Origin: a virus
Taxonomy: Duplodnaviria; Caudoviricetes
Strand: one strand, 5' to 3'
DNA: 33,596 bases
Virus record (IMG/VR): IMGVR_UViG_3300027890_000003
Location: 1-33,596 of that record
The notes under the pieces are model-generated. The model ran no database searches and had not been told where the DNA came from. It saw nothing but the letters and a program-made list of their open reading frames with translations. Position numbers and translations under genes: made by a program. Position 1 is the stretch's first letter. Each line of letters opens with the position of its first letter. Positions 1 through 26,168 of this stretch are shown one piece after another.

Positions 1-2
1 TG

Positions 3-431
3 CGGCCCTACGTTGTCGAGCGCGACGACGAGACCATCAACGCCATGCGCGAGAAGGCCGCCGAGTTCTGGACGCGCTACGTCCTGGCCAAGCTGCGTCC
101 GCCGCTCGACTACGCGGACAGCAAGACGCTCGACACGCTGCGCCGGCTGTACCCGGGCACCGACGGTTCGGTCATCGAGGCCACGGCTGCGCATGAGCAC
201 TGGCGTGCCGTGCTGACAACCGCTCACGACATGGCCGCCAAGTACGAAGGCGTCATTGAAGGCGCCAAGGCGCATCTGCTCGCCGAGATGGGCGCCGCCG
301 CCGTCCTCAAGTTCCCCGACGGCAAGGCCTTCCGTCGCAAGGAGATCAAGACCAAGGCCGTGACCATCGAAAAACCTGCCTGCCGGCACATCGACTTCCG
401 GCTCGTCAACTTCAAGGAAGAACAAGCATGA
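3..431 (+). CDS. YqaJ/lambda-exonuclease-family recombination exonuclease, C-terminal part (5' truncated by window)
   Basis: Frame is open from base 3 (RPYVVERDDETINAMREKAAEFW...), resembling the YqaJ C-terminal 'ERDE..I..M.....FW' segment. Its stop overlaps the RecT start (ATGA). Catalytic motifs lie outside the window. Confidence 0.7.
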   Translation, partial: RPYVVERDDETINAMREKAAEFWTRYVLAKLRPPLDYADSKTLDTLRRLYPGTDGSVIEATAAHEHWRAVLTTAHDMAAKYEGVIEGAKAHLLAEMGAAAVLKFPDGKAFRRKEIKTKAVTIEKPACRHIDFRLVNFKEEQA

Positions 432-1336
432 CCACCGACCGCCTGCGCGCCGTCGCCACCGGCAACAAGGCTGAGACGCCCATCGCCAAGTTCTCCGGTT
501 TCATGGACAAGCTCAAGCCCCAGTTGGCGCTGGCTCTGCCCAAGCACATGAACGCCGACCGCATGTCGCGCCTTGCGCTCACCGCCTTCAGCACGAACGC
601 GGACCTGCAGCAGTGCTCGCCGCAGAGCATCGCCGGCTCGATCATGACGGCCGCCCAGCTCGGCCTGGAGCCCGGCATCAACGGCCAGGGCTATCTGATC
701 CCGTACAAGGGAACCTGCACCTTCGTGCCGGGCTGGAAGGGTCTCGTCGACCTGGTGGCGCGCAGCGGCCGGGCTACGGTCTGGACGGGCGTGGTCTATC
801 CGGGCGACCGCTTCGAGTACCAGCTCGGCGACGCGCCGTTCTGCCGCCACGTTCCGGGCGACGGCACCGAGGGCGACGAGTTCACACACGTCTACGGCAT
901 CGGCCGCGTTCGCGACGCCACCATGCCTGTCATCGAGGTCTGGACGCGCGCAAAGGTGCAGAAGCACTTGAAGCAGTACAACAAGGTCGGCGGCCGTCAC
1001 TACGCGCACTCGAACGAGAACAACTTCGAGATGTACGCCCGCAAGGTCGCGCTGCTGCAGGTGCTTAAGTACATGCCGGCCAGCATCGAACTGGCGAACG
1101 CCATCGAGGTCTCGCACGCTTCGGAGAGTGGCCAGCACGTTGTTCTTGACGGCGATCTCGTGCGTGTCACCGAGACACCGGAAGGCTCTGCCAAGAGCCT
1201 CGCCGATTACCGCCTGATGGTGGAGAGCGCCAGCGACCGCGAGACCGCGCAGCTGGTCATGGATGAAGCGCGCGATGTGCTGACGCCCAGCGAGATCGAA
1301 GAGCTGACGCAGGCGCTGGAGCAGGCATGGACCTGA
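428..1336 (+). CDS. recT: RecT-family single-strand annealing recombinase
   Basis: 302 aa with RecT hallmarks: LALALPKHMNADRM, L.QCSPQSI.GSIMTAAQLGLEP, YLIPY, GWKGLVDLVARSG, EMYARKVAL. RBS AAGGAAG upstream. Confidence 0.92.
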   Translation: MTTDRLRAVATGNKAETPIAKFSGFMDKLKPQLALALPKHMNADRMSRLALTAFSTNADLQQCSPQSIAGSIMTAAQLGLEPGINGQGYLIPYKGTCTFVPGWKGLVDLVARSGRATVWTGVVYPGDRFEYQLGDAPFCRHVPGDGTEGDEFTHVYGIGRVRDATMPVIEVWTRAKVQKHLKQYNKVGGRHYAHSNENNFEMYARKVALLQVLKYMPASIELANAIEVSHASESGQHVVLDGDLVRVTETPEGSAKSLADYRLMVESASDRETAQLVMDEARDVLTPSEIEELTQALEQAWT

Positions 1337-1503
1337 ACGTGCGCCGCAAAACCCTGCCCGACTTCCGGCTGGACCTGCGGGCCTGCACGGACGCAGCAGC
1401 AGCGCGAGAAGTCGTGGCCGCCGCTCGCACCGTTCTGAGCCGCGACGACTACCGCGAGCTGCAAGACGACTACCGCAACACCTTTGAGGCCCAAACCCAA
1501 TGA
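1327..1503 (+). CDS. 58-aa protein paralogous to the RecT C-terminal helical domain (not in ORF track)
   Basis: Hand translation MDLNVRRKTLPDFRLDLRACTDAAAAREVVAAARTVLSRDDYRELQDDYRNTFEAQTQ*. It fills the recT-1500 gap and its stop overlaps the next ATG (ATGA). Alternative GTG start at 1339. Confidence 0.7.
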   Translation: MDLNVRRKTLPDFRLDLRACTDAAAAREVVAAARTVLSRDDYRELQDDYRNTFEAQTQ

Positions 1504-1712
1504 CCCAACGCCGCTACTACCTCGTCACCGACAAGGTCACCGATAAGCACCGCCTCGTCCGCGCGACCCACCCGTCCACCGCACTGCGCCACGTGGCTGC
1601 CGACGCCTTCACGGTGCGCGTGGCGAGCCAGGACGACCTGCTGACGGCCATCGCGGCCGGCGTGAAGGTCGAGACCATCGCGGCCGAGCAGACCGAGCTG
1701 CCGACGACATGA
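1500..1712 (+). CDS. small phage hypothetical protein (70 aa)
   Basis: Coupled ATGA start, GC3-rich codons, 'RLVRA..P..ALRHVA...FTVRVASQDDL' pattern typical of small phage early proteins. Confidence 0.75.
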   Translation: MTQRRYYLVTDKVTDKHRLVRATHPSTALRHVAADAFTVRVASQDDLLTAIAAGVKVETIAAEQTELPTT

Positions 1713-1783
1713 CCCCTTGTCTCCCGCGCCCATCGGTGCCGGCCTACCCGGCGCCTGCTTTCTCCCTGACAGGCGGGCGCGTT

Positions 1784-1815
1784 TCCCCGGGGCCTTGTGC
1801 CTCGGGGGTTTTCTT
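1784..1815 (+). terminator. Rho-independent terminator
   Basis: CCCCGGGGC-CTTGT-GCCTCGGGG stem-loop (one G-U pair) followed by GTTTTCTT. Confidence 0.7.
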
Positions 1816-1838
1816 CTCAACTCGCTGAAAGGCGCCTG

Positions 1839-2456
1839 ATGTTCCAACTTGTTACCCCCACCACGGCCAAGCTCAAGAGCCTGACGCCCCGCATCGAGAA
1901 GCACGGCGACGAGAATGTGCCGGCCGTGTCGCTTGGCCTGTCGATCACCGGCCCGAACACCCTGCTGGATCTGTTCAGCGAGACGCTGCGCCAAGCGCTC
2001 TACAAGGCCGCCGAGGACGCGGGCGACAACTTGCCAGGCATTGACGCACCGACGCCGCTGCTGCGCACGCGTGGTCTGGAGAAGATCAAGCTCAAGACCG
2101 GCGACATGGTCGGATATCGCCTCGTCGTGGACCACGGCATTGGCGACGACAGCGCCATCGACCTGCACGACTGCAAGGTTGATAAGTGGGCACTGGAGCC
2201 GTTCGAAGGGGGCAGCATTGAGCTGAGCTTTCGTGTGGGCACGTCTGACATTGACGAGACCTGGGCGGGCCGGCTGGCGATGAAGCTTGGCCAGGAGGTC
2301 GAGATCACGCTGCACGCGCCCGAGCCCAAGCCCGATGCCATTGACGGCACCAAGGCCGCATTCGATGCGGACCATCCCGAGGCGGGCGACCTGTTCGCGG
2401 CTGAGCACGGCGGCCAGCAGCAGGACGACGACGAGACCGAAGGCGCCGAGGGCTGA
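1839..2456 (+). CDS. phage hypothetical protein with acidic C-terminus
   Basis: ATG at 1839 preceded by GAAAGG; 205 aa MFQLVTPT...RIEKHGDENVPAV...DDDETEGAEG. Confidence 0.8.
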   Translation: MFQLVTPTTAKLKSLTPRIEKHGDENVPAVSLGLSITGPNTLLDLFSETLRQALYKAAEDAGDNLPGIDAPTPLLRTRGLEKIKLKTGDMVGYRLVVDHGIGDDSAIDLHDCKVDKWALEPFEGGSIELSFRVGTSDIDETWAGRLAMKLGQEVEITLHAPEPKPDAIDGTKAAFDADHPEAGDLFAAEHGGQQQDDDETEGAEG

Positions 2457-2458
2457 TC

Positions 2459-2728
2459 ATGCCCATCCGCTACAAGCCCTATGCCGGCAGCACCGAAAGC
2501 AGAGTCGTAGAGCTGCTGCGGTTCCTTCCCGCCGGCACTGCGCTACACGGCGGCGACCTGGATACGCGGCTAGGGATTGGCGAGCGGCGAGGGCTGCACA
2601 CCAAACTTTATCGCTGCGTCAGCCACGGCTTGCTGCGCGCCGAGAAGCGCGAGGACAGTGCTGGCCGCCTGCGCATGCACTGGATGGCTGGCAACGGTGC
2701 GCCACACCACGGCACTTCGAATACTTGA
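2459..2728 (+). CDS. hypothetical protein, possibly winged-helix-like
   Basis: 89-aa ORF packed 2 nt after the previous stop; helix-rich then beta-hairpin pattern (fold is inference). Confidence 0.6.
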   Translation: MPIRYKPYAGSTESRVVELLRFLPAGTALHGGDLDTRLGIGERRGLHTKLYRCVSHGLLRAEKREDSAGRLRMHWMAGNGAPHHGTSNT

Positions 2729-2737
2729 GCGACACCC

Positions 2738-2974
2738 ATGGGCTACGAAAACCCTCTCCTGAAGCTGCCGGCCGCACAGAAGCTGCTGGCGCTGCCGCCC
2801 GATCAGCGCCAGGTCATCGAAGCGCTGATGCGCGAGCTGCGCGCGGACGCCGATCACCAGGCGGAGGCGTCGTGGCGCAAGCGCAAGGGGCCGATGGCGG
2901 CCTATTGGCGCGCCGTGTCCACCTACGCCCGCCACGTCGCCCATGCGCTGAGCAAGGGCCGGGCGAAGCCCTGA
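2738..2974 (+). CDS. phage hypothetical protein (78 aa)
   Basis: NPLLKLPAA...SWRKRKGPMAAYWRAVSTYARH; ends ...KP* inside repeat copy 1. Confidence 0.8.
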   Translation: MGYENPLLKLPAAQKLLALPPDQRQVIEALMRELRADADHQAEASWRKRKGPMAAYWRAVSTYARHVAHALSKGRAKP

Positions 2975-2995
2975 AACCCAAGCCCCTGGAACTGA
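2966..2995 (+). repeat. intergenic cassette-boundary repeat, copy 1
   Basis: AAGCCC TGA AACCCAAGCCCCTGGAACTGA; TGA 2972-2974 is the upstream stop, next ATG at 2998. Confidence 0.85.
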
Positions 2996-2997
2996 AC

Positions 2998-3426
2998 ATG
3001 AGCGACCTACTCCGCAAGATCGAAGCCGCCCGCGTCCGCGCTGCCGAGGACGCAGTGGTGGCGAGCCTCCCGCCCGAGCTGCTCGAAAGCGTGCGGACAC
3101 CCACCATGGCCGACTGGCTGCACCTGAAGGCCTATGGCTACGCGCCCGGCGACTACATGAGCCGCTGCCGTAAGTGTGGCGACACGCCCATCAACATGGA
3201 CAAGCGCGCCACCACTTGCCGGCCATGCGCTGAGGCACTGCACGCCGCCCGCTCACTCGCCGTCTCGGCCGCTGATGGCGTCGCGCTACCGCACCCTGCT
3301 GGGCGCATCTATCGGGACGATCCGCGTGATGCGAACTACGCCAATGTCGTTCCGGTCTACACCGGGGAGCAAATGCGCGAATACGCCATCGCCGTGCTCA
3401 CGCAGTCGTTGCTTCGTCAACCCTGA
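2998..3426 (+). CDS. hypothetical protein with CxxC...CxxC putative zinc ribbon
   Basis: Start MSDLLRKIE at 2998 (3' part of track ORF 2287..3426); GYAPGDYMSRCRKC...KRATTCRPCA. Confidence 0.75.
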   Translation: MSDLLRKIEAARVRAAEDAVVASLPPELLESVRTPTMADWLHLKAYGYAPGDYMSRCRKCGDTPINMDKRATTCRPCAEALHAARSLAVSAADGVALPHPAGRIYRDDPRDANYANVVPVYTGEQMREYAIAVLTQSLLRQP

Positions 3427-3446
3427 AACCCAAGCCCCGGAACTGA
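3419..3446 (+). repeat. intergenic repeat, copy 2
   Basis: AACCC TGA AACCCAAGCCCCGGAACTGA, near-identical to copy 1; next ATG at 3455. Confidence 0.85.
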
Positions 3447-3454
3447 GGTATCCC

Positions 3455-3997
3455 ATGAAACGCGAACGAGATGACCTGCCGGCAGAACGCTTGCGCGAGT
3501 TGCTGAACTACGACCCGGGAACCGGCGTCTTCACTTGGCGCATCGACCGGCGCGCAATGGCGCGGCCCGGCAGCTTGGCTGGAACCATCACGCCCAGCGG
3601 CTACCGGAACATCTGGACCGATGGCTACAACTATCGGGCGCACCGCCTGGCATGGCTGTACGTCTACGGCAAATGGCCGGCTGGCCAGATCGACCACATC
3701 AACCGTGTGCGCGATGACAACCGCATCGCCAATCTGCGGATCGTCACGCACGCCCAGAACATGGAGAACCGCAAGGTTCAGCGCAACAACACCAGCGGCT
3801 ACACGGGCGTCTACCCGGATCGCGGAGGCCGGCGCTGGCAAGCGCGGATCAGCTCCAACGGCAAGTGGCTTTACCTGGGGTACTTCAAGACCCCCGAGCT
3901 GGCCTACGCCGCCTATTGCAAGGCCGCCGCTGAACTGCACACCCACAACCCTGCTGCCCGGAATTCCCATCCTGCGGCGGCCGCGTCCGCTAATTAA
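3455..3997 (+). CDS. HNH homing endonuclease with C-terminal AP2-like DNA-binding domain
   Basis: ERLRELLNYDPGTGVFTW, YRAHRLAWLYVYGKWP, IDHINRVRDDNRIANLR, NTSGYTGVY, WQARI, YLGYF; RBS GAGGT. Confidence 0.92.
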   Translation: MKRERDDLPAERLRELLNYDPGTGVFTWRIDRRAMARPGSLAGTITPSGYRNIWTDGYNYRAHRLAWLYVYGKWPAGQIDHINRVRDDNRIANLRIVTHAQNMENRKVQRNNTSGYTGVYPDRGGRRWQARISSNGKWLYLGYFKTPELAYAAYCKAAAELHTHNPAARNSHPAAAASAN

Positions 3998-4012
3998 GCC
4001 TCGGACATAGCC

Positions 4013-4234
4013 ATGTTCTGTACCACCTGCTTCGGCCATCCAAAGGACTGTGACTGTGGAGCCCTCCAACCAAAATCGACTGGCGTTTCTGTGGTGGAAG
4101 TTCGTTCACAACGCGCTGATCCACCCGCTGCTTGCCCTGCCATGGGAGCCCCGCTGGGCTCAGCGGGCGCACGACTGGACTGCAAAGCGCTGTCCGGGAG
4201 CTGGGTGAGGCGGATCGCCGAGCGCAAGCCCTGA
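4013..4234 (+). CDS. hypothetical Cys-rich ORF (alternative to the nested 4056..4208 frame)
   Basis: MFCTTCFGHPKDCDCG...; stop falls in repeat copy 3 (...RKP*). Confidence 0.35.
   Translation: MFCTTCFGHPKDCDCGALQPKSTGVSVVEVRSQRADPPAACPAMGAPLGSAGARLDCKALSGSWVRRIAERKP
4056..4208 (+). CDS. 50-aa hypothetical protein (not in ORF track)
   Basis: GTG start 8 nt after AAAGGA; MEPSNQNRLAFLWWKFVHNALIHPLLALPWEPRWAQRAHDWTAKRCPGAG*. The HN..HPL...HDWT pattern resembles a small phage protein family (from memory). Confidence 0.6.
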   Translation: MEPSNQNRLAFLWWKFVHNALIHPLLALPWEPRWAQRAHDWTAKRCPGAG

Positions 4235-4249
4235 AACCCAATCCCCCGA
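4226..4249 (+). repeat. intergenic repeat, copy 3
   Basis: AAGCCC TGA AACCCAATCCCCCGA; next ATG at 4261. Confidence 0.85.
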
Positions 4250-4260
4250 CTGTGCACACC

Positions 4261-4539
4261 ATGAGCAACGACCAAACCGCTTGGCTGATTGAAGTCGCGC
4301 AAAGCCCCACGCTGTACTGGGACGGGTCGCTCCACTCCGACCGGGATCGCTACCGGGACGAGGTCTACGTGATCCCCAACATGCAGCCAGACGCGAGCAA
4401 GGCCGTGCGCTTTCCAAGCAAGCAGGCCGCAGAGAAGGCCTTCAACAGCTTCTACCCCAAGAACGTCTGGCCGATTCCGATCCGCATCTTGGGCCGCGAC
4501 TGCTACCGGATCGCCGAGCACATGTGGCCCGGCGCCTGA
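4261..4539 (+). CDS. hypothetical protein (92 aa)
   Basis: [11 protein letters not shown]...A.RF.SK..AE...IAEHMW; bounded by repeat copies 3 and 4. Confidence 0.75.
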
Positions 4540-4556
4540 CCCCCATCCCCCGAACT
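4534..4556 (+). repeat. intergenic repeat, copy 4 (diverged)
   Basis: GCC TGA CCCCCATCCCCCGAACT; next ATG at 4562. Confidence 0.7.
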
Positions 4557-4561
4557 CGCAC

Positions 4562-5695
4562 ATGGCGGCCTACTACAACGAGATCGACCCCTATGCAGCA
4601 GCCTGGCTCCGAAACCTCATCGACGCTGGACACATCGCGCCCGGGTTCGTCGATGAGCGCAGCATCGAAGACGTCCACCCGTCCGACATCCGTGGCTTCA
4701 CCCAGTGCCATTTCTTCGCCGGCATTGGGGTATGGAGCCTCGCCCTTCGGCGCGCCGGTTGGCCAGATGATCGACCTGTTTGGACCGGTTCCTGTCCGTG
4801 CCAACCTTTCAGCTCGGCAGGCAAAGGAGCTGGGTTTGCTGACGAGCGGCACCTCTGGCCGGCTTTCTTCCACCTCATTGGCGAGTGCCGCCCTCCAGTC
4901 GTCTACGGAGAGCAGGTTGCGAGCTCTGATGTCGGGCCGTGGCTCGACCTTGTACAAGCTGACGTGGAAGACCTGGGCTACGCCTTCGGGTGTGTCGCGT
5001 TCCCGTCTGCGGGCGTCGGCGCTCCGCACATCCGCGACCGGCTCTTCTGGCTGGCCAACGCCAACAGCGGCGCTCGCCGAGAAGGGCGTGCGGACCTTCG
5101 AGGGCGGGCTGATCGAGGCAATGCGGAACCACGGCCCGGACTTGGCGGCGGCGGCGTGTCTGGCCGGCTGGGGAACGCCGAACGCATCGGCCCCGGGCGG
5201 GACGCCGGAGCAGGCCCTGGCCAGGAAGGCGGGGCTGGCGTGCGGGCAGTCGGTGACGACGCTGGACCATCAGGTGCAGCTTGCAGGATGGGCAACGACC
5301 AGCGCGCGGGATTGGCACTCTGCGAGCGGCTCGCCAGAATTCCTAGCGGAGCGAGCGGAGCAGACGCGGGGCAAGCCACTGAGCGAACAGGCATTCACGC
5401 TGCTGTCGGGATGGGGGACACCCAGGGCAGCGGATGGCGGGGGCGACCGGGGCAGCTCGGCGGGCTTCGGCCTGAGGAACGACTGCAAGCTGGCCAGGAT
5501 GGAGCAGCCGGCCCGGTTAACGGCCTCTGGCGAGCTGCTGACTGGCTCGCATGCACAGACGGCAAGTGGCGGCCAGTTGAACCCGGCTCATTCCCGCTGG
5601 CTCATGGGGCTCCCGCCCGAGTGGGACGCCTGCGCGCCTATGGCAATGCGATCAACGCCGAAGCGGCGCGCGTCTTCATCGAAGCAACCCTCTGA
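4562..5695 (+). CDS. C5-cytosine DNA methyltransferase, catalytic (alpha) polypeptide
   Basis: Motifs NEIDP (II), SIEDV (III), FFAGIG (I), GSCPCQPFS (IV, catalytic PC), EQV (VI), PHIRDRLFW (VIII), RLRAYGNAI (X). No motif IX; the middle is low-complexity G/R/A. Confidence 0.9.
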
Positions 5696-5708
5696 ACCCA
5701 ATACCTGA
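4653..5708 (+). CDS. alternative-frame methyltransferase beta polypeptide (target-recognition repeats plus motif IX-like segment)
   Basis: Frame open 4524..5708 over the whole alpha gene, with four GW[PGA]T[PT] repeats and [18 protein letters not shown]. Start uncertain (ATGs at 4593, 4653, 4767). Confidence 0.75.
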
Positions 5709-5710
5709 AG
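5693..5710 (+). repeat. intergenic repeat, copy 5 (diverged)
   Basis: TGA ACCCAATACCTGAAG at the methyltransferase alpha stop; next ATG at 5721. Confidence 0.6.
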
Positions 5711-5720
5711 CCTACCCATC

Positions 5721-6098
5721 ATGAACACACGACACACCCCTGGCCCGTGGGCATGGCGCGACGACGGCACGGCCCTGGTGGGCAATCCGCCGGAGTATTC
5801 GGGCCCCTATTGCGGCTATGTCTGGTGGCCGAGAAACATCGGCGGCGAGGTGGATTGCCGAGTAGACGGCTGGTCCGCTGCAATGGGCGATTCGGTCGGC
5901 GATGACGCGCAAGCAGAAGCCAACGCCCGCTTGATCGCCGCCGCTCCGGAGCTGCTGGAGGCGCTGCAGGAATCGCTGCGGTTGCTGGAGGCGGCGCTGA
6001 CGGTGGGCTGCGAGTTCCAGCCCGGCAGCGTTGGCTGGAAAGCCCACGCCGCCATCGCCAAAGCTACCGGCCAATCCCCATTTAAGGAAACACCATGA
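5721..6098 (+). CDS. phage hypothetical protein (HTPGPW...ANARLIAAAPELLEAL family)
   Basis: Characteristic N-terminal HTPGPW and EANARLIAAAPELLEALQ segments. Confidence 0.85.
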   Translation: MNTRHTPGPWAWRDDGTALVGNPPEYSGPYCGYVWWPRNIGGEVDCRVDGWSAAMGDSVGDDAQAEANARLIAAAPELLEALQESLRLLEAALTVGCEFQPGSVGWKAHAAIAKATGQSPFKETP

Positions 6099-6367
6099 GC
6101 ATCCGCAGAGAGTTTCGCGCCTGGATCAAGACGCGCCCGGCCGGCGTAAGGGCAGCAGCGCGCACAGTCAAACCGTGGCACGCCTACCGCCTCAAGACAA
6201 CGGGGCAACACGTCGTTCTCCAGGCGTACGCCGAGAACGGCACCGTGCGCGTCGGCGTGATTGGCCACGACGATCCCATTCTCGCGCTGATGAACTACGT
6301 GGGCCTGAGCGTGTTCGGCATCAGCCCGGCAGACCTTGAGCGCCTGCCCGTCCCATGTGCCGCTTGA
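6095..6367 (+). CDS. hypothetical protein (90 aa)
   Basis: ATGA-coupled, RBS TAAGGA; preceded by partial repeat CCAATCCCC (6071-6079). Confidence 0.75.
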   Translation: MSIRREFRAWIKTRPAGVRAAARTVKPWHAYRLKTTGQHVVLQAYAENGTVRVGVIGHDDPILALMNYVGLSVFGISPADLERLPVPCAA

Positions 6368-6377
6368 AGGTCTGACC

Positions 6378-6731
6378 ATGAACACCACCGAACTGGACCC
6401 CAACGGGCTTGACGCCCATGCCCCGGGCGCCAAGTTGGACGCCGGCAAGCTGATGCCGTGGCTGTGCATCGCCGGCTTCTCCCGCGCGCTGGCCGCCGTC
6501 GCCGACGTGACCACCAAGGGGGCCGTCAAGTACACGCCGAACGGCTGGATGCACGTCCCCGAGGGCGAGGCCCGCTACATGGAAGCCTTTGGCCGCCACA
6601 TGCTGGCCCTGGCGCGCGGCGAGACGGTCGATGCCGACACGGGTGCGCTGCACAAGGCGCAAATGGTGTGGAACCTGCTGGCCAGCTTGGAACTGGAACT
6701 CCGCCGTGAGTCCGGCTGGAACAAGCCCTAA
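6378..6731 (+). CDS. dATP/dGTP diphosphohydrolase N-terminal-domain (DUF5664-like) protein
   Basis: PGAKLDAGK, ALAAVADVTTKGAVKY.PNGW, RY.EA..RH, D.DTG.LH.AQ..WN.LA.LELE; ATG at 6378 after GAAGGT. Confidence 0.82.
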   Translation: MNTTELDPNGLDAHAPGAKLDAGKLMPWLCIAGFSRALAAVADVTTKGAVKYTPNGWMHVPEGEARYMEAFGRHMLALARGETVDADTGALHKAQMVWNLLASLELELRRESGWNKP

Positions 6732-6748
6732 AACCAATCCCCAGGAAG
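6723..6748 (+). repeat. intergenic repeat, copy 6
   Basis: AAGCCC TAA AACCAATCCCCAGGAAG; next ATG at 6751. Confidence 0.8.
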
Positions 6749-6750
6749 AG

Positions 6751-8085
6751 ATGACCGACCTGCTGCAAGACGGACCCGGCTGCGCTGAAGGCAGGCGCTA
6801 CGCCCGCTGGTTTGCTGACCGCCTGGACGCCATGTGGCTGCTGCGCAAAGCCCACAACGAACGAGGACTGACCACCATGACCACACCTGACCTGACCCAG
6901 CGCCTGCGCGACTTTGCCGACACGTACCGTGGCATCGATGAGCTGGGATACACCGGACTCATGACCCAAGCTGTTGACGAGTTGGAGCGGCTGCGCCAAG
7001 CCGCTGCACAGCAGGACGAGGCCATCAACTGGGTTACCAAGGGCGTGCAGGAGATCATCGCCGAGCGTGACGTGCTGCGCGCCAAGGCGGCGCTAGGCAT
7101 GGCGATGGCCGATGCCGCAGCGCAACTCGCCGAGCTGGAGCGCCTGCGCGCCCAGGTTGCGCCGGCCGATGTCACGCCCGAGATGCTGCGCGCCGGCCAG
7201 ATGACGGAAGCGGGCGGCTATGTCTGCTCAAGCCTCTCTGGCGCGTACGAACTGCTCACAAAGTTGTTCAAGGCCATGCTCGCCGCCGCCCCGGCACAGC
7301 AGGCCGAGCCTGTCTTCCACCTCCGCAGCTATGGAGATGTGACGCGGGCGCAGCTGGACGAACTGACCCAGCAGCAGGCCGCCCCATCCCTGACGCTTGC
7401 TGCGGCACTGCGCGCCCGCCACAACCTCCCGATTACAGCTCCCCGGCGCTACCCGCTGGTTGGTGAAATCGTCGAGGTGGACGGCAAGGTCGGCGTGTGC
7501 ACCGAGTACCACAAGGGCTGGTGCTACGTCCGCGACATGGACGACGAGTGGCTCGACTTCATCAGCGATGAGGCGCGGCACGGCCCCTGCGGTAAGACGT
7601 GGCGCATCCTTGACGACGCCCCATCCCTGACGGTTGAGGATGACCCAGAGAACGACCCGCCCGCGCGCGAAGCCTCCGACTGGGCGCCCGGCCCCGACTA
7701 CGACGGCGACGGCTCTGTCGCGGCGATGGCGAGGCGTGCGGCTGCGCAGCCTGCCGCGCAGGCAGAGCCGGTGGCCGACCTGACGCCCGAGCAGCTCGCC
7801 GACAAATGCGAATCCTGGCTCCAGACGGGGACGCTCACGACGAACGTTGTGGACGCCTACGAAGCCGGCTACCGCGACTGCGAGGCTGCACATGCGGCCG
7901 CCGCTTCCAAGCGGCCCGCGCAGGGGGTGGAACTGACATTCGAGCAGCGCCGCGCGGTCCACGAGGCCGAGCGCAATGCCGCCGCAGATCGCTGGTTTGC
8001 TGCGCGGGCCGACTGGGTGCTCGACTGCCCGGACGCGCGCCGCAAGTTTGAAGCTGGCTTTGACGCCGCGAAGGAGCAGCCGTGA
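6751..8085 (+). CDS. mosaic multi-module early protein (Ead/Eaa-like architecture)
   Basis: In-frame starts at 6751 and 6877 (GAGGA RBS); repeated linkers ELERLR x2, QAEPV x2, APSLT x2. Confidence 0.7.
   Translation: MTDLLQDGPGCAEGRRYARWFADRLDAMWLLRKAHNERGLTTMTTPDLTQRLRDFADTYRGIDELGYTGLMTQAVDELERLRQAAAQQDEAINWVTKGVQEIIAERDVLRAKAALGMAMADAAAQLAELERLRAQVAPADVTPEMLRAGQMTEAGGYVCSSLSGAYELLTKLFKAMLAAAPAQQAEPVFHLRSYGDVTRAQLDELTQQQAAPSLTLAAALRARHNLPITAPRRYPLVGEIVEVDGKVGVCTEYHKGWCYVRDMDDEWLDFISDEARHGPCGKTWRILDDAPSLTVEDDPENDPPAREASDWAPGPDYDGDGSVAAMARRAAAQPAAQAEPVADLTPEQLADKCESWLQTGTLTTNVVDAYEAGYRDCEAAHAAAASKRPAQGVELTFEQRRAVHEAERNAAADRWFAARADWVLDCPDARRKFEAGFDAAKEQP
7380..7632 (+). repeat. 16-bp in-frame direct repeat CGCCCCATCCCTGACG (7380-7395 and 7617-7632)
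   Basis: Exact copies 237 bp (79 codons) apart within the CDS. Confidence 0.85.
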
Positions 8086-8330
8086 CCTGCATCAACTTCG
8101 GTGGCGGCATCGTCTGCGTCAACGACAACTGGGGCCGTCTCAAGGTCGGCAACCGCTACATCTGGGTGGACATGCACCCATGGTGCGGCCCGAGCTTCTT
8201 CACCGACTCCGACATGTCCAAGGTCTACGACCCGGTGGATGAGACGGACCCGGTGTGGCCTGTGTTCGGCGAATGGCTGGAGCGCAAGAAGGCAGAGAAG
8301 GCGAAGGCCGAAGCCCGCCGCAAACCATGA
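8082..8330 (+). CDS. hypothetical protein (82 aa)
   Basis: GTGA-coupled start; MTCINFGGGIVC...HPWCGPSFF; ends RKP* in repeat copy 7. Confidence 0.75.
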   Translation: MTCINFGGGIVCVNDNWGRLKVGNRYIWVDMHPWCGPSFFTDSDMSKVYDPVDETDPVWPVFGEWLERKKAEKAKAEARRKP

Positions 8331-8347
8331 AACCCAATCCCCGGAAG
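8322..8347 (+). repeat. intergenic repeat, copy 7
   Basis: AAACCA TGA AACCCAATCCCCGGAAG; next ATGs at 8348/8354. Confidence 0.85.
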
Positions 8348-8353
8348 ATGCCC

Positions 8354-8827
8354 ATGAAAGCAACCATCGAGCTGACCGTGCGCTCCGGCTGGTACGGCGA
8401 GAAGGCGCAGACCTTCGTCGTGCCGCTGGACGAGCGCGCCTGGCGCGACATCGCAAACCCCGTGGAGTTGAGCGACGAGCCGCTGTCGCTGCTGCTGGCC
8501 TCGCCCGGCATGATGGGCGGCCGAGGTGATGCCGTCACCATCCGCGAAAGCACGTTCAAGCTGCGCCGCAGCTACGCGCAGTCGATTGCGGACGCGCTGA
8601 CGCGGCAACTGCTGGAGGCCTTCGGCGTCAATGACGAGTTGGACGGCCACAAGGTCTCCGGCATGTCGGATGAGGAACGCGCCTGGCACCAGCAGCGCGG
8701 CCGGCTGGCGCCGCAGCGCCATGAGCCTCTGCCGCCATCGCCTCTGCAGTCGATGTCCGAGGTAATCGAGCGGCACGTCAGCGAGTCGCTGCACGCCCCG
8801 CGCAAATCCAGCAAGAGGAAGGCCTGA
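8354..8827 (+). CDS. hypothetical protein
   Basis: MKATIELTVR... 157 aa, bounded by repeat copies 7 and 8; start could be 8348. Confidence 0.72.
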   Translation: MKATIELTVRSGWYGEKAQTFVVPLDERAWRDIANPVELSDEPLSLLLASPGMMGGRGDAVTIRESTFKLRRSYAQSIADALTRQLLEAFGVNDELDGHKVSGMSDEERAWHQQRGRLAPQRHEPLPPSPLQSMSEVIERHVSESLHAPRKSSKRKA

Positions 8828-8850
8828 CCTTCCAACCCCCGAGAACTGAG
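8819..8850 (+). repeat. intergenic repeat, copy 8 (diverged)
   Basis: AAGGCC TGA CCTTCCAACCCCCGAGAACTGAG; shares the GAACTGA tail with copies 1 and 2; GTG at 8859. Confidence 0.65.
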
Positions 8851-8858
8851 GACCGACC

Positions 8859-9149
8859 GTGATCCGATTCATCATCAAGCGCCACATGGACAACGGGCGC
8901 ACCGTTGGCACGAGCACCTTCGAGACGTTTGACGTGGACGTGCCCGAGCTGGAAGCCGCGCTGACCGGTGGCGGCCATGACCACGCCGGCAGCTACGACG
9001 TGCGCGAACTGGTCGGCGTCGAGGTACTGCCTGCGGAGTCCGACCTGTGCCAGAACTGCGGCGACCTGGCCCACCCCGGCTGCAACTCCGAATTCAGCGC
9101 CGAGCCAGCCTGCCGCTTCTGGGGCCCAGGCGCTGCGTCCCGTACTTGA
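8859..9149 (+). CDS. hypothetical protein with Cys-rich C-terminus
   Basis: GTG start after GAGGA; CQNC...C...C tail; its TGA stop lies in the tRNA-like fragment. Confidence 0.72.
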   Translation: MIRFIIKRHMDNGRTVGTSTFETFDVDVPELEAALTGGGHDHAGSYDVRELVGVEVLPAESDLCQNCGDLAHPGCNSEFSAEPACRFWGPGAASRT

Positions 9150-9197
9150 AATCCCCCGCCGCAAGGTGTGCCGGTTCGAGTCCGGCCCCGGGCACCA
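9144..9197 (+). other. 3' half of a tRNA-Leu; putative attP core
   Basis: A-CTTGAAA-TCCCC, variable arm GCC-GCAA-GGT, T-arm GCCGG-TTCGAGT-CCGGC, acceptor strand CCCGGGC, discriminator A, CCA. No D-arm or matching 5' anticodon stem upstream. Confidence 0.8.
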
Positions 9198-9238
9198 GAA
9201 GAAACTGAAGCGGGCGGGTGTGTGGGAAGTTCTTGGAC

Positions 9239-9487
9239 CTAGCGGGTGGGCGCACCGTTGCGCCACCTCGGGGCATCCAGCCACAGGTACAGCAGTACAG
9301 AGGCCCCGAGCATTGAGGGGCCAGCGCGCTCAAGCCCGTACGCCGGCAGAGATAGGACCGCGCCCGCAAGCAGGACGCCGTACTGAATTTTGACGCGGGT
9401 TCGGGTGAAGTCGTCCATGACCCTGGCGCGGCAGATGACCGCCCAGAAAATCCCGGCAACAATGAGGTAATGCACGGCTTCGATCAT
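9239..9487 (-). CDS. small membrane protein (about 3 TM), holin-module associated
   Basis: MIEAVHYLIVAGIFWAVICRARVM...; 82 aa, ATGA-coupled to the upstream holin-like gene. Confidence 0.7.
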   Translation of the reverse strand: MIEAVHYLIVAGIFWAVICRARVMDDFTRTRVKIQYGVLLAGAVLSLPAYGLERAGPSMLGASVLLYLWLDAPRWRNGAPTR

Positions 9488-9879
9488 TTCGTCTTCCCGT
9501 CCTGATGAATCGCGGCCTCGACCCAGCGTTTGGCAAGCTGCCCCGCCCACCGAAGCACCGCGGGCCATCGATGCCCAATCCAGCCGATCGTCAGAGCGAT
9601 GGGCGCCAGACCCCGCCTGTCGCCAATGAGCGGCGATAGCAGCCCGACGAGCTCGGCAAATGTGCCGGTCACGAGCCACGCCGCACAGCCCATTGACGCA
9701 ACGTAGGCCATGCCTTCCCATGCGGTGCAGGGGCGCCAGGACATGAGCCCAAACACACCGCCAGCCATGCCAGCGATCAGCACCACCAAGTGAGGCGCCA
9801 GGGCTGTAGCGGTAGCTGCCCCGACGAACACACTCAGAACCTGCGCAATCCCCGCGACGGGGTCAGCTCCGTTTGCCAT
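9484..9879 (-). CDS. putative holin-like membrane protein
   Basis: ATG at 9879 with GGAGGTGGAG RBS; 131 aa with about 3 hydrophobic segments and a basic C-terminus; located after the tailspike. Confidence 0.6.
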   Translation of the reverse strand: MANGADPVAGIAQVLSVFVGAATATALAPHLVVLIAGMAGGVFGLMSWRPCTAWEGMAYVASMGCAAWLVTGTFAELVGLLSPLIGDRRGLAPIALTIGWIGHRWPAVLRWAGQLAKRWVEAAIHQDGKTK

Positions 9880-10374: not shown

Positions 10375-12936
10375 TCAGAAATTCACTAGCGCCGCGCTAA
10401 CGAGCTGCTTCTGTGCCGTCGTGCCAGTGAGAGTGCTGCTCGCTTCCTTGTAGCAAACCGAGGCCTCGCCAATCGAGTAGCCGTAGGTCGACGCGGTGCC
10501 GGTATCGCCCGTGCTCCAGATTTGCGACTGGGCCAGCGCCTTGATGCCCACCGTTGTGCCGGTGAAATTGTTGCTGACTGACGTGACCCGGCTACCAAGT
10601 GCATTGATTCCATTGCCAGCGCCGGCAAGCGTCAGGCTCTCAAGATGCGCATTGGAGTTGCGCAGCGACACGCCACCCGCGCAATTCAAACCGTTGCGCA
10701 CGTCGACCATGGAGCAGTTGGTGATGGTCATGCTGGGGACGGTGGCGCCCAGCGGGGACCGCAGGTTGATCGGGTTAGATACGCCGCTCAGCGCAAATGC
10801 TGCATATGTGGCATTGACAGCTAGGCTGATCGTGACTGCCGTCTGCCCGCCAGTCAGCTTTGAAACGCGCTCAAGTGCTTCCGTCAGCGTAGCAACAGGA
10901 CTTGCGGCCGAGCCGATGGCGTCATCGCTGCCAGAGGCATTTACGGTGATCGTCGCGGCTGTGAGCGACTCACCATTCAAAATCACGGGGGCCATGTCAG
11001 TCGGGGTATTGACGACAGTGCCCAGCGTTGAATTAGTGAACTCAACGCGCACCAACCGACCGCCCGAAAGATCGATCTTGTCGGGCATCACAAACCGGTC
11101 AAACGACCCATCTCGAACGCGGTTAAGCGTGATGTATGGCGTCAAGTCGGTTGTGCTGGTGCGGACGTTGACCATCGACAACCCATTTATCCAGCCACCC
11201 GCGCCGGTCAAGATTGGTGCGCAGGCGTTGCCGTCAACTTGGACGTTCGAATACTGGTGCTGGTTGAAAGCCGTGTTCTCGGTCGTTGTGTTGGAACTGT
11301 GGCGGTACAGGATGCCCGTCGCGCCGCTCGCAGTTGTGCCGCATGTGATCTGGAGATTGCCTATCTTGACGTTGTTGATACCGATTGGCGACGACGTGTC
11401 GTGCGCGAACTCAAGCAGACCGCCGCCGTAGACATTGGAGTTGTCAGCAGTGATCGTCACGTTCAGGATGTTGACGTTGCGGATCCGCCCCGCAGCGACG
11501 TTGAGCTCCAGGCCGCCGCAGTAGCAGCCAATGAACTCCAGGTCCGACATGTTCACGCCGTCGCAGTTGTAGTCCGGCAGCGTTGAGCCCCCGCCCTTGG
11601 TGTACTCGCGCAAGAAGATTGGATAACCTCCGACTCCCGGCTGGCCATTGCCAAAGCTCCTCACGCCGTTGATGCTGGCGTTCGAAAGGTTCAGGAGGTA
11701 CATGCCCCGGAAATTGATGTTGTTGCCGCTGCCGGCGCCCTGCATTGAAATGTCGTCAGCGAACAGGCCGTCGATGTGCAGCAGTTCCATCGCGTGGTGA
11801 TAGCCGTACGTCTTGATACCACGCAAAGTGACGTTCTTGTACTTGACGCCGCCCATAGGTATCAGGTCGTCAGTTTGGAATTCAATCAAGCTGTAGCCAT
11901 ATTGGCCACTGAGGTCGCGCAGAACAATGTTCGAGGCAGCAGTGTCGAAATACACCGGTACGCCGCTGCTCGATGCGCCGCCGCTACCGGTCTGGGCGCC
12001 AATGAACTTGATGCCGGCCACCGTGACGTTCGTGCAGTTGCGGAAGCGAAACCAGACTTGGCCGAGCTTGTTGGTGCAAGTGAACGTCGCGCCATAGCCC
12101 TGGATCGTGACGTTGCTAAGCCCGAAGAAGTCAATGCTGCTGCCCTCGGCCGCGTTGTAGGCGCCAAGCTGCGTACCGTCGAGCGTGTAGTTGCCGGGCG
12201 GCACCGTGAAATTGATGTTGCCGCCGAGCGTCTTCGCATAGTCCGCGAGCTTCTTCAGGGCTGCGACGTTCGCTGCGCCCGTGGCAGCCGTCGATAGGCC
12301 GGCGTCAGCCGCGGTGAGGTTCTCGATGTTCTTGTCGTGCTGGGTGCGGTCGACGGCGCCGGTAAAGGGCTGCTTGACGCCGATGCCTGCGTCTCCTTTG
12401 GCGACATCGGAGGTGTTGGCGATGTTGGCGGCCAAGTCGGCAGCACTGCCACTCACTGGCGCAACAAGCGACACGCGGCCGTCAGAGTCAAACCCTAGCA
12501 GCAAGTTGGCGCGAGAGGCGGCAGCCGGGAGAGTTGAGCCAGAAGTGTCAGATGGCGAGAAAACCAACGCGCGGCCGGCAATCTCCAGGAGCTGCTGCGA
12601 CAGCATCATCAGCCGATCGAAGTCGCGCCCCACAGTCTCGGCGGGGAAGTCCTCGCCGTCCACATAGTCGCTCGACTGCAGGGGCTCCACGTCGCGCAGG
12701 ATGGTGACGTATCCGCCAGAGGCGTAGGCTGTCGTCGTTGTGACGGTGCCGGTTGATCCGCCACCGCCGGTCACCGTGTAGCCGACGTTCAACGTCAGCT
12801 CGGACTCGTTGCCGTCAGAATCGGTGTAGATGACCTGAAGGTCTTCGTCCCGAAGAAAGGGGAATAGCACAGACCAAGGGCCCGTGGTCCCGTTGGTTCC
12901 GTACTGTGCTCGGGAGACGGTGGTTTCGACGGTCAT
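10375..12936 (-). CDS. tail fibre/tailspike: T7 gp17-like N-terminal anchor plus right-handed beta-helix (depolymerase-like)
   Basis: N-terminal TNGTT..W...FPF....DL.V...DFPAE....FDRL.ML.QQL anchor, RTQHDKN linker, VPPGNY beta-helix cap, N/G/T/I-rich coils; last structural gene. Confidence 0.88.
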   Translation of the reverse strand: MTVETTVSRAQYGTNGTTGPWSVLFPFLRDEDLQVIYTDSDGNESELTLNVGYTVTGGGGSTGTVTTTTAYASGGYVTILRDVEPLQSSDYVDGEDFPAETVGRDFDRLMMLSQQLLEIAGRALVFSPSDTSGSTLPAAASRANLLLGFDSDGRVSLVAPVSGSAADLAANIANTSDVAKGDAGIGVKQPFTGAVDRTQHDKNIENLTAADAGLSTAATGAANVAALKKLADYAKTLGGNINFTVPPGNYTLDGTQLGAYNAAEGSSIDFFGLSNVTIQGYGATFTCTNKLGQVWFRFRNCTNVTVAGIKFIGAQTGSGGASSSGVPVYFDTAASNIVLRDLSGQYGYSLIEFQTDDLIPMGGVKYKNVTLRGIKTYGYHHAMELLHIDGLFADDISMQGAGSGNNINFRGMYLLNLSNASINGVRSFGNGQPGVGGYPIFLREYTKGGGSTLPDYNCDGVNMSDLEFIGCYCGGLELNVAAGRIRNVNILNVTITADNSNVYGGGLLEFAHDTSSPIGINNVKIGNLQITCGTTASGATGILYRHSSNTTTENTAFNQHQYSNVQVDGNACAPILTGAGGWINGLSMVNVRTSTTDLTPYITLNRVRDGSFDRFVMPDKIDLSGGRLVRVEFTNSTLGTVVNTPTDMAPVILNGESLTAATITVNASGSDDAIGSAASPVATLTEALERVSKLTGGQTAVTISLAVNATYAAFALSGVSNPINLRSPLGATVPSMTITNCSMVDVRNGLNCAGGVSLRNSNAHLESLTLAGAGNGINALGSRVTSVSNNFTGTTVGIKALAQSQIWSTGDTGTASTYGYSIGEASVCYKEASSTLTGTTAQKQLVSAALVNF

Positions 12937-26140: not shown

Positions 26141-26168
26141 AAAGGAAGACCGGGGCCGAAGCCCCGGG
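26141..26168 (-). terminator. putative intrinsic terminator after capsid/decoration genes
   Basis: CCGGGGC-TTCG-GCCCCGG (UUCG tetraloop) followed by TCTTCCTTT on the minus strand. Confidence 0.7.

Follow-up and report, generated by a model that had tools for sequence, protein, structure and literature searches.

Ordered junction linkers in a phage accessory-gene array as putative crossover points for gene replacement

Introduction

The window analysed here is a 33,596-nucleotide stretch of virus DNA (Duplodnaviria; Caudoviricetes), positions 1 to 33,596 of IMG/VR record IMGVR_UViG_3300027890_000003, which is 82% complete and is called phage A below. Its + strand carries a 6.4-kb array of accessory genes separated by linkers, junction sequences of 25-30 nt composed of a shared stop-plus-core and a slot-specific tail that ends at the next start codon. 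In three phages these linkers keep their order while the genes between them change. The favoured explanation, given a probability of about 0.65, is that the ordered linkers are crossover points at which homologous recombination, probably by a phage annealing protein, replaces accessory genes slot by slot. This reading rests on sequence comparison and is weighed below against translational, site-specific and regulatory alternatives.

The linker family in the window

A first-pass annotation, made from the sequence alone, described one stop-anchored motif at eight gene junctions. All eight stops, at 2972, 3424, 4232, 4537, 5693, 6729, 8328 and 8825, are in place and followed by a C-rich core, as is a partial copy that it reported at 6071. 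A 9-nt core pattern matches eight times in the window, always on the + strand and between 2978 and 8832, a count that includes the partial copy at 6071 and misses the copy at 5693. With the stop included and up to 2 mismatches allowed, there are four matches where 0.15 are expected, and none of 100 shuffles reached four. A position weight matrix (PWM) built from the eight copies returns eight matches of at least 12 bits, all on the + strand and each with a stop directly upstream. The - strand of the window has none at 10 bits or more. The copies are co-oriented, as first described, and matches are not equally frequent elsewhere or on the other strand. Nothing comparable occurs in the late arm, where the first-pass annotation had seen no motif; position 26156 has a weaker + strand match (11.2 bits) that lacks a stop. 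In leave-one-out scans, the copies rank from 1 to 32 among all positions on both strands.

The next start lies 19-31 nt past the stop, in agreement with the 20-30 nt first estimated. The accompanying claim that unrelated upstream proteins end alike is correct for five of the eight ORFs (open reading frames), which terminate in a K/Q-P dipeptide, and incorrect for the other three. Comparison with relatives adds further shared linkers at the junctions 2726, 6365, 6864 and 8082, and weakly at 3995; most cassettes thus consist of a single gene.

Conservation of junctions and turnover of genes

Three phages were compared with the window. Phage B (L137, G001) was found through ORF 1839-2456, phage C (L167/L188, G007; record incomplete) through its capsid protein, and phage D (L201 and L204, G417; 99.99% identical and counted once) through a linker pattern. 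Alignment of the late arms with that of the window extends over 18.8 kb in B and 17.5 kb in C, at ~79% identity. Phage D has about 1 kb alignable to the window, and its polymerase, helicase and primase are its own. Junction sequences of this same family occur next to the integrase in B, C and D, and 25 junctions from the four phages could be aligned. Across these relatives the junctions are kept and the genes between them are changed. When the array ORFs of A, B and C were compared all against all by blastp, with four ORFs mis-started by a base left out, the sole between-phage match at E<=0.05 was that of window ORF 6751 with L137 ORF 14579. The slot of ORF 2738-2974 is likewise occupied by other genes in B, C and D.

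The order of the linkers was tested with the 40 nt upstream of each hand-chosen start, and the best collinear chain was compared with 5000 shuffled orders; 4 of the 49 start coordinates are off by at least one base, which slightly shifts those 40-nt windows. Order is conserved between A and B (1 of 5000 permutations), A and C (0) and B and C (2), with 19, 0 and 3 at a stricter threshold and 0, 2 and 4 in an earlier run. In all four phages, linker 8 is embedded in the final codons of the gene 5' of it, and four unrelated proteins consequently end alike.

Two side observations concern the arrays of the relatives. In phage C, a short insert with a small ORF in opposite orientation and an AT-richer spacer (L188 ~4170-4520, - strand) breaks the array directly after linker 5. 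In phage D, a tRNA-like sequence, recognised by reading, directly follows the array (L204 8222-8295).

Anatomy of a linker

The 25-copy alignment shows a stop in 23 of the 25 junctions and, within a few bases, a core with C in 24 of 25. Two places after this C comes an A that never varies, and a pyrimidine run follows it; next, 20 of 25 copies have a G, and purines come after. The 3' tail is slot-specific, with identity of 0.76 within a slot and 0.44 between slots (0 of 10000); slot labels in this test were partly set by likeness, and it is the order test that is independent. In the window, the copies are homogenised in their 5' half (identity 0.78, compared with 0.52 to those of other phages), an effect that B, C and D do not show internally (0.57 vs 0.60). 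This window-specific homogenisation accounts for the tight consensus noted in the first-pass annotation. Across slots, the linkers share the core but are not one interchangeable site. The core also resembles the tRNA T-loop consensus, a likeness that was dropped because a closing stem is missing.

In 15 of 15 copies, RNA folding of the sense strand gave z values of -1.2 to +1.6 relative to shuffles, and hence no hairpin. No Rfam family matches the motif, and the original remark that it is not palindromic like attC is borne out. These features are compatible with the view that linkers are translation junctions only: unstructured, C-rich and G-poor spacers that carry a weak ribosome-binding tail and are inherited vertically, while genes are replaced illegitimately and selection keeps recombinants with intact junctions. 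Selection acting on illegitimate recombinants is the standard alternative model (PMC3233612, in the passages drawn on here). The fixed place of linkers between stop and start, their restriction to the sense strand, and purine-rich tails 7-15 nt 5' of several starts are all in keeping with this explanation, as is the shortness of the perfect runs they share. It leaves unexplained why, in three genomes, almost every slot retains the resident junction on either side and not the start region of the donor. The position of linker 8 inside coding tails and the homogenised 5' halves of the window (0.78 vs 0.52) are equally unaccounted for. Translation as the whole story is therefore judged unlikely, although it is the most serious competitor. 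Of the alternative offered by the first-pass annotation, an unstructured C-rich RNA site for translation or antitermination control, the translation signal is retained as a likely second function: the linker likely also serves as a translation junction.

A second alternative treats linkers as targets of a site-specific tyrosine recombinase, with an imperfect inverted pair around an 8-base spacer and the slot variants as mutually incompatible sites. Many copies in B, C and D do have three-base inverted arms ~8 nt apart, and several cores resemble the tRNA-Leu attachment (att) site just past the anticodon. Moreover, a linker-like stretch is fused to the window att where xis-int would sit, and the integrases of B, C and D, ordinary phage enzymes, adjoin the array. 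Such a system needs a matched spacer, yet spacer identity is 0.58 within slots and 0.58 between slots, and the conserved part of the linker falls outside the spacer. Most of the window copies no longer have the left arm. Prophage B borders the 5' end of mutS (PF01624; L137 18275-18541), phage C uses tRNA-Leu, as the window does, and phage D has a different integrase, yet the linkers are common to all. The window, from a record 82% complete, has no match to the tyrosine integrase family PF00589. The suggestion of a site-specific recombinase, also raised by the first-pass annotation, thus finds no support and is considered very improbable. As a separate observation, the integrase of phage B is oriented opposite to its array.

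Regulatory cassettes of the PeSL type, in which exchangeable promoter/terminator repeats excise and insert genes as small circles, are the least probable of the explanations considered. The location of the repeats, from stop to start in a hypervariable early region, recalls the PeSLs in the portions of PMC2839356 used here. Perfect runs of up to 18 nt among window copies would permit some deletion, and slot numbers vary between phages. No promoter-like site lies at any linker, however; the single one in 8.2 kb is inside a gene (0.6 expected). There is no terminator-like site within the array and no hairpin, and the order of linkers is conserved across A, B and C, not shuffled. Outside the array, two hairpin/terminator-like sites lie at 1735-1808, 5' of ORF 1839, and are the sole ones within 1300-9500.

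DNA islands inside the long gene

The linker pattern recurs within a gene. ORF 6751-8085 (+ strand) encodes a long modular protein without a family match. Its comparison with the phage B counterpart in L137 reveals DNA islands of 25-39 nt at 91-100% identity, in the same order, that bound segments which cannot be aligned. Four near-identical islands lie at 7128-7166, 7273-7309, 7747-7771 and 7906-7937 on the + strand. They use the same codon at 36 of 38 shared residues, compared with 72% in two conserved genes (123 of 171 residues and 177 of 245); the binomial p is 0.0016 at 0.75. Island 6879-6891 and ORF 1500 were left out of this codon comparison. In addition, two in-frame copies of a core-like sequence are present, at 7382 and 7619.

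These islands cannot be a translation-start signal, and their near-identical codons are not explained by junctions that act in translation only. They point to exchange at the level of DNA. Together with linker 8, they are the reason why a translation role alone fails to account for the pattern, which extends into coding tails and gene interiors.

Proposed exchange and its assessment

Slot-by-slot replacement through the linkers would proceed as follows. Two phages, or a phage and a prophage, would share a cell, and RecT or a Gp2.5-like protein would pair linkers n and n+1 with their counterparts, so that the stretch between them is swapped. The incoming gene would obtain a ready stop, spacing and start context, and most recombinants would therefore be viable. 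The differing tails would restrict deletion between copies inside one genome; self-deletion is presumably limited because window copies have at most 18 perfect nt in common. Selection probably keeps the linker as an unstructured translation junction, and its use in recombination would be a consequence. New genes would likely first enter via a rare chance crossover on the shared core. Homologues of the cargo elsewhere lack linkers, so the cargo is drawn from a general pool.

The first-pass annotation took the junctions for boundaries of exchangeable cassettes of one to three genes. The boundaries themselves are supported, since relatives keep the junctions and change the genes, but free reordering and excision are not: slot-specific tails and the order kept in three phages indicate replacement in fixed slots. 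Of the YqaJ/RecT pair that it proposed as one possible agent, RecT is plausible and adjoins the array in A and B. The same linker family is present in phage D, which has no RecT and carries a Gp2.5-like annealing protein and an exonuclease instead.

Several points weigh against exchange through the linkers. Counterpart junctions in A, B and C share perfect runs that are mostly 12-18 nt long and never exceed 22. Short, diverged homology is enough for Rad52-like phage recombinases to work, which favours the proposal, and the minimal pairing segment for Red-beta is quoted as 23-27 bp (PMC3945230, in the excerpts available). Runs of at most 22 nt, below the 23-27 bp of Red-beta, speak against efficient exchange between these particular genomes, though these are ~20% diverged. 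Crossovers, circles and recombinants were not seen; the searches also turned up no raw reads of this phage and no close relative with a change in a single slot. The array is known from just four independent phages. Phage D shares the linker family but not clearly its order: comparisons of D with the others are not significant (1047, 505 and 139 of 5000, threshold 8), and one phage D linker is out of order. Gene starts were picked by hand, some once the linkers were known, and the islands were chosen by DNA likeness, which inflates the codon test. Not every slot differs, as B and D carry related PAPS-reductase-family genes in slot 0. Finally, homologues of cargo genes in other phages lack linkers.

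A bolder version, in which a dedicated protein would read the common core and the tails would serve as addresses, is improbable. Unrelated backbones of one host group could then trade genes and domains into ordered slots without collapse of the array.

Linkers and cargo along the array

All array features lie on the + strand. Linker 0 (2714..2740, from stop 2726 to start 2738) falls outside the range first annotated and has counterparts in L137, L188 and L204. It precedes the slot gene at 2738..2974, a widespread mobile accessory gene of 78 aa with homologues at 103 loci in varied neighbourhoods. Linker 1 (2966..3000) has a tail common to C and D, and linker 2 (3418..3457) is assigned weakly to a slot of C. 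An HNH-AP2 endonuclease (3455..3997; PF13392, PF00847) is followed by a possible linker 3 (3995..4015), which is without the C-rich core and weakly similar to junctions of L137 (score 10) and L188. Linker 4 (4226..4263) shares its tail with the L137 junction at 12186. Overlapping short ORFs at 4013-4234 and 4050-4208 are rivals for the slot before it; neither has a family match.

Linker 5 (4531..4564) is identical to L137 at 30 of 35 nt and to L188 at 20 of 23 nt. It leads into a C5-cytosine DNA methyltransferase (4562..5695; PF00145), whose homologues elsewhere have no linkers in their flanks. ORFs 4524-5708 and 4562-5695 overlap fully in different frames, and both match PHROG families labelled methyltransferase (phrog_363; phrog_1008 and 31772). 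This arrangement recalls two-chain methyltransferases with one chain in an alternative frame. Linker 6 (5687..5723) matches L137 at 21 of 23 nt and has counterparts in C and D. Linker 8 (6349..6380), with its core within the last codons of ORF 6095-6367, is the best conserved linker and is found in all four phages.

A dATP/dGTP diphosphohydrolase-domain protein follows (6378..6731; PF18909). Linkers 9 (6723..6753) and 12 (8819..8861) were recognised from junction comparisons and the 25-copy alignment. Linker 9b (6864..6891) surrounds the in-frame start 6877 within the long gene (6751..8085) and is identical to L137 at 27 of 28 nt. Linker 10 (8068..8085) sits at an overlapping stop/start, with 16 of 17 nt identical to L137, and linker 11 (8322..8356) matches L137 at 16 of 16 nt and L204 at 19 of 20 nt. 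The cargo was described at first as functionally unrelated, and the family matches, which name the endonuclease, the methyltransferase and the diphosphohydrolase domain, agree with this. PADLOC made 0 defence calls on 12 ORFs.

Genomic setting

The window is a temperate-type podophage. Its - strand arm encodes terminase, head-tail adaptor, capsid, tail tubular and internal virion proteins. The + strand arm begins with the C-terminal part of a RecE-like (YqaJ-type) exonuclease, truncated by the window edge (1..431; phrog_434, E 6e-14), followed by the single-strand annealing protein RecT (428..1336; PF03837, E 3e-33), the candidate enzyme for exchanges. The conserved early gene at 1839..2456 (+ strand), directly 5' of the array, is 92% identical to its L137 counterpart over residues 1-186. 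The array occupies an exo-xis-like region between RecE/RecT and a tRNA-Leu att site.

This att site is the 3' half of a tRNA-Leu(CAA) gene (9149..9198, + strand), fused straight to the last cargo stop and identified by chromosomal matches. The stretch matches chromosomal places at 86-95% in five of five Burkholderiales genomes searched, and the matches are tRNA-Leu in both Burkholderiales genomes fetched. It is 98% identical to the att of phage C. Within 9135-9198, likeness to att starts in the anticodon loop, at the cargo stop, after a linker-like stretch. Nothing in the window rose above chance against Rfam, and no whole tRNA was matched. Between the last cargo gene and the window att there is neither xis nor int, and phage C has both before the same att. 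This may reflect a deletion that produced a non-integrating derivative; alternatively, the integrase may lie in the absent 18% of the record. The host group is probably Burkholderiales, judging from the att matches and an 84%-identical Roseateles-labelled protein.

Searches for further arrays

The exact window consensus has 0 matches in viral contigs. The 103 loci with homologues of ORF 2738-2974 are mostly without the motif, and their stop-bearing PWM matches (28 on the + and 19 on the - strand) are near background. In nine of the loci (L005, L006, L013, L014, L015, L020, L027, L029 and L101, the last titled Pseudomonas sp.), the homologue is followed on its 3' side, at ~8232-8290, by a shared prophage junction. 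It consists of a C-rich tract, a hairpin and a start region, after which the downstream sequences differ. This is a possible separate family of boundary sequences.

The 33 loci with RecT relatives contained no array. The linker-8 pattern found phage B and one unrelated match (L139) in viral contigs, and 21 matches in genomes, none with a convincing second linker; the linker-9b pattern gave 0 in genomes. The linker-0 pattern found seven viral loci: two are B and C, two are phage D, and three have no array. The stretches read of the distant phages L164 and L165 and of the capsid relatives G008-G011 hold no linkers, and G012-G016 gave short matches only. In the GTDB samples, a distant homologue of ORF 1839 is present in 4 of 401 genomes, and a piece of the array of B, without linkers, in 1 of 401. 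Named phages share single cargo genes only. Among sequencing runs, one DNA run matched (0.07 share of words) with scattered pieces only, and no RNA run was listed.

Comparison with known systems

No description of this linker family was found in the open-access library that was searched, subscription papers lying outside it. Integron gene cassettes (attC/attI, IntI) are tandem single genes that lack promoters and have a related site behind each gene, and the array resembles them in these features. Unlike integrons, it has no long imperfect palindrome or hairpin, no integrase match in the window of this 82%-complete record, and a conserved order.

The PeSL cassettes of the T4-type phages RB49 and phi1 (PMC2839356, in part) are also repeats between a stop and the next start in a hypervariable early region and act as recombination points. 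In that account they combine a sigma-70 promoter with a stem-loop terminator, and they generate insertions, deletions and mini-circles in lytic phages. The present linkers, in contrast, are ~25-30 nt long, have neither promoter nor stem-loop, keep their order, and belong to temperate-type phages.

The exo-xis region of lambda and Stx phages (PMC8614690, exo-xis passages) is comparable in its location between recombination genes and xis/int/att and in its variable downstream genes. Its protein Ea22 is multidomain, with a coiled-coil-like part and swapped domains, like the long protein of the window. The family searches of the window gave nothing that matches Ea22 in sequence; what the two share is position and architecture. 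Those passages describe no linker family.

The closest precedent is the boundary, or linker, sequence model of lambdoid mosaicism (Susskind and Botstein 1978; Clark et al. 2001, on HK620), as relayed in parts of PMC3233612, PMC3029335 and PMC3974807. In the first two of these, boundary sequences are said not to be findable at most mosaic boundaries. Both systems have short conserved sequences at junctions common to phages, here 25 aligned junctions in four phages, and unrelated modules in equivalent positions, the slot-0 genes of B and D excepted. Boundary order is conserved in both, here in A, B and C and not significantly with D. Homologous recombination at the boundaries is likewise proposed in both. 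Unlike the lambdoid boundaries, nearly every junction of the 6.4 kb carries a linker, all of one family with a shared core and a slot tail, and the scheme extends to domain borders within a gene. Whether phage mosaicism arises by recombination aimed at boundary sequences or by random joining followed by selection is an old and open question. The region is a compact test case for it, with a linker at almost every junction, an ordered arrangement, near-complete gene turnover, and the pattern repeated inside a gene. It also suggests that the accessory-gene slots of phages may be found through their junctions rather than through their genes.

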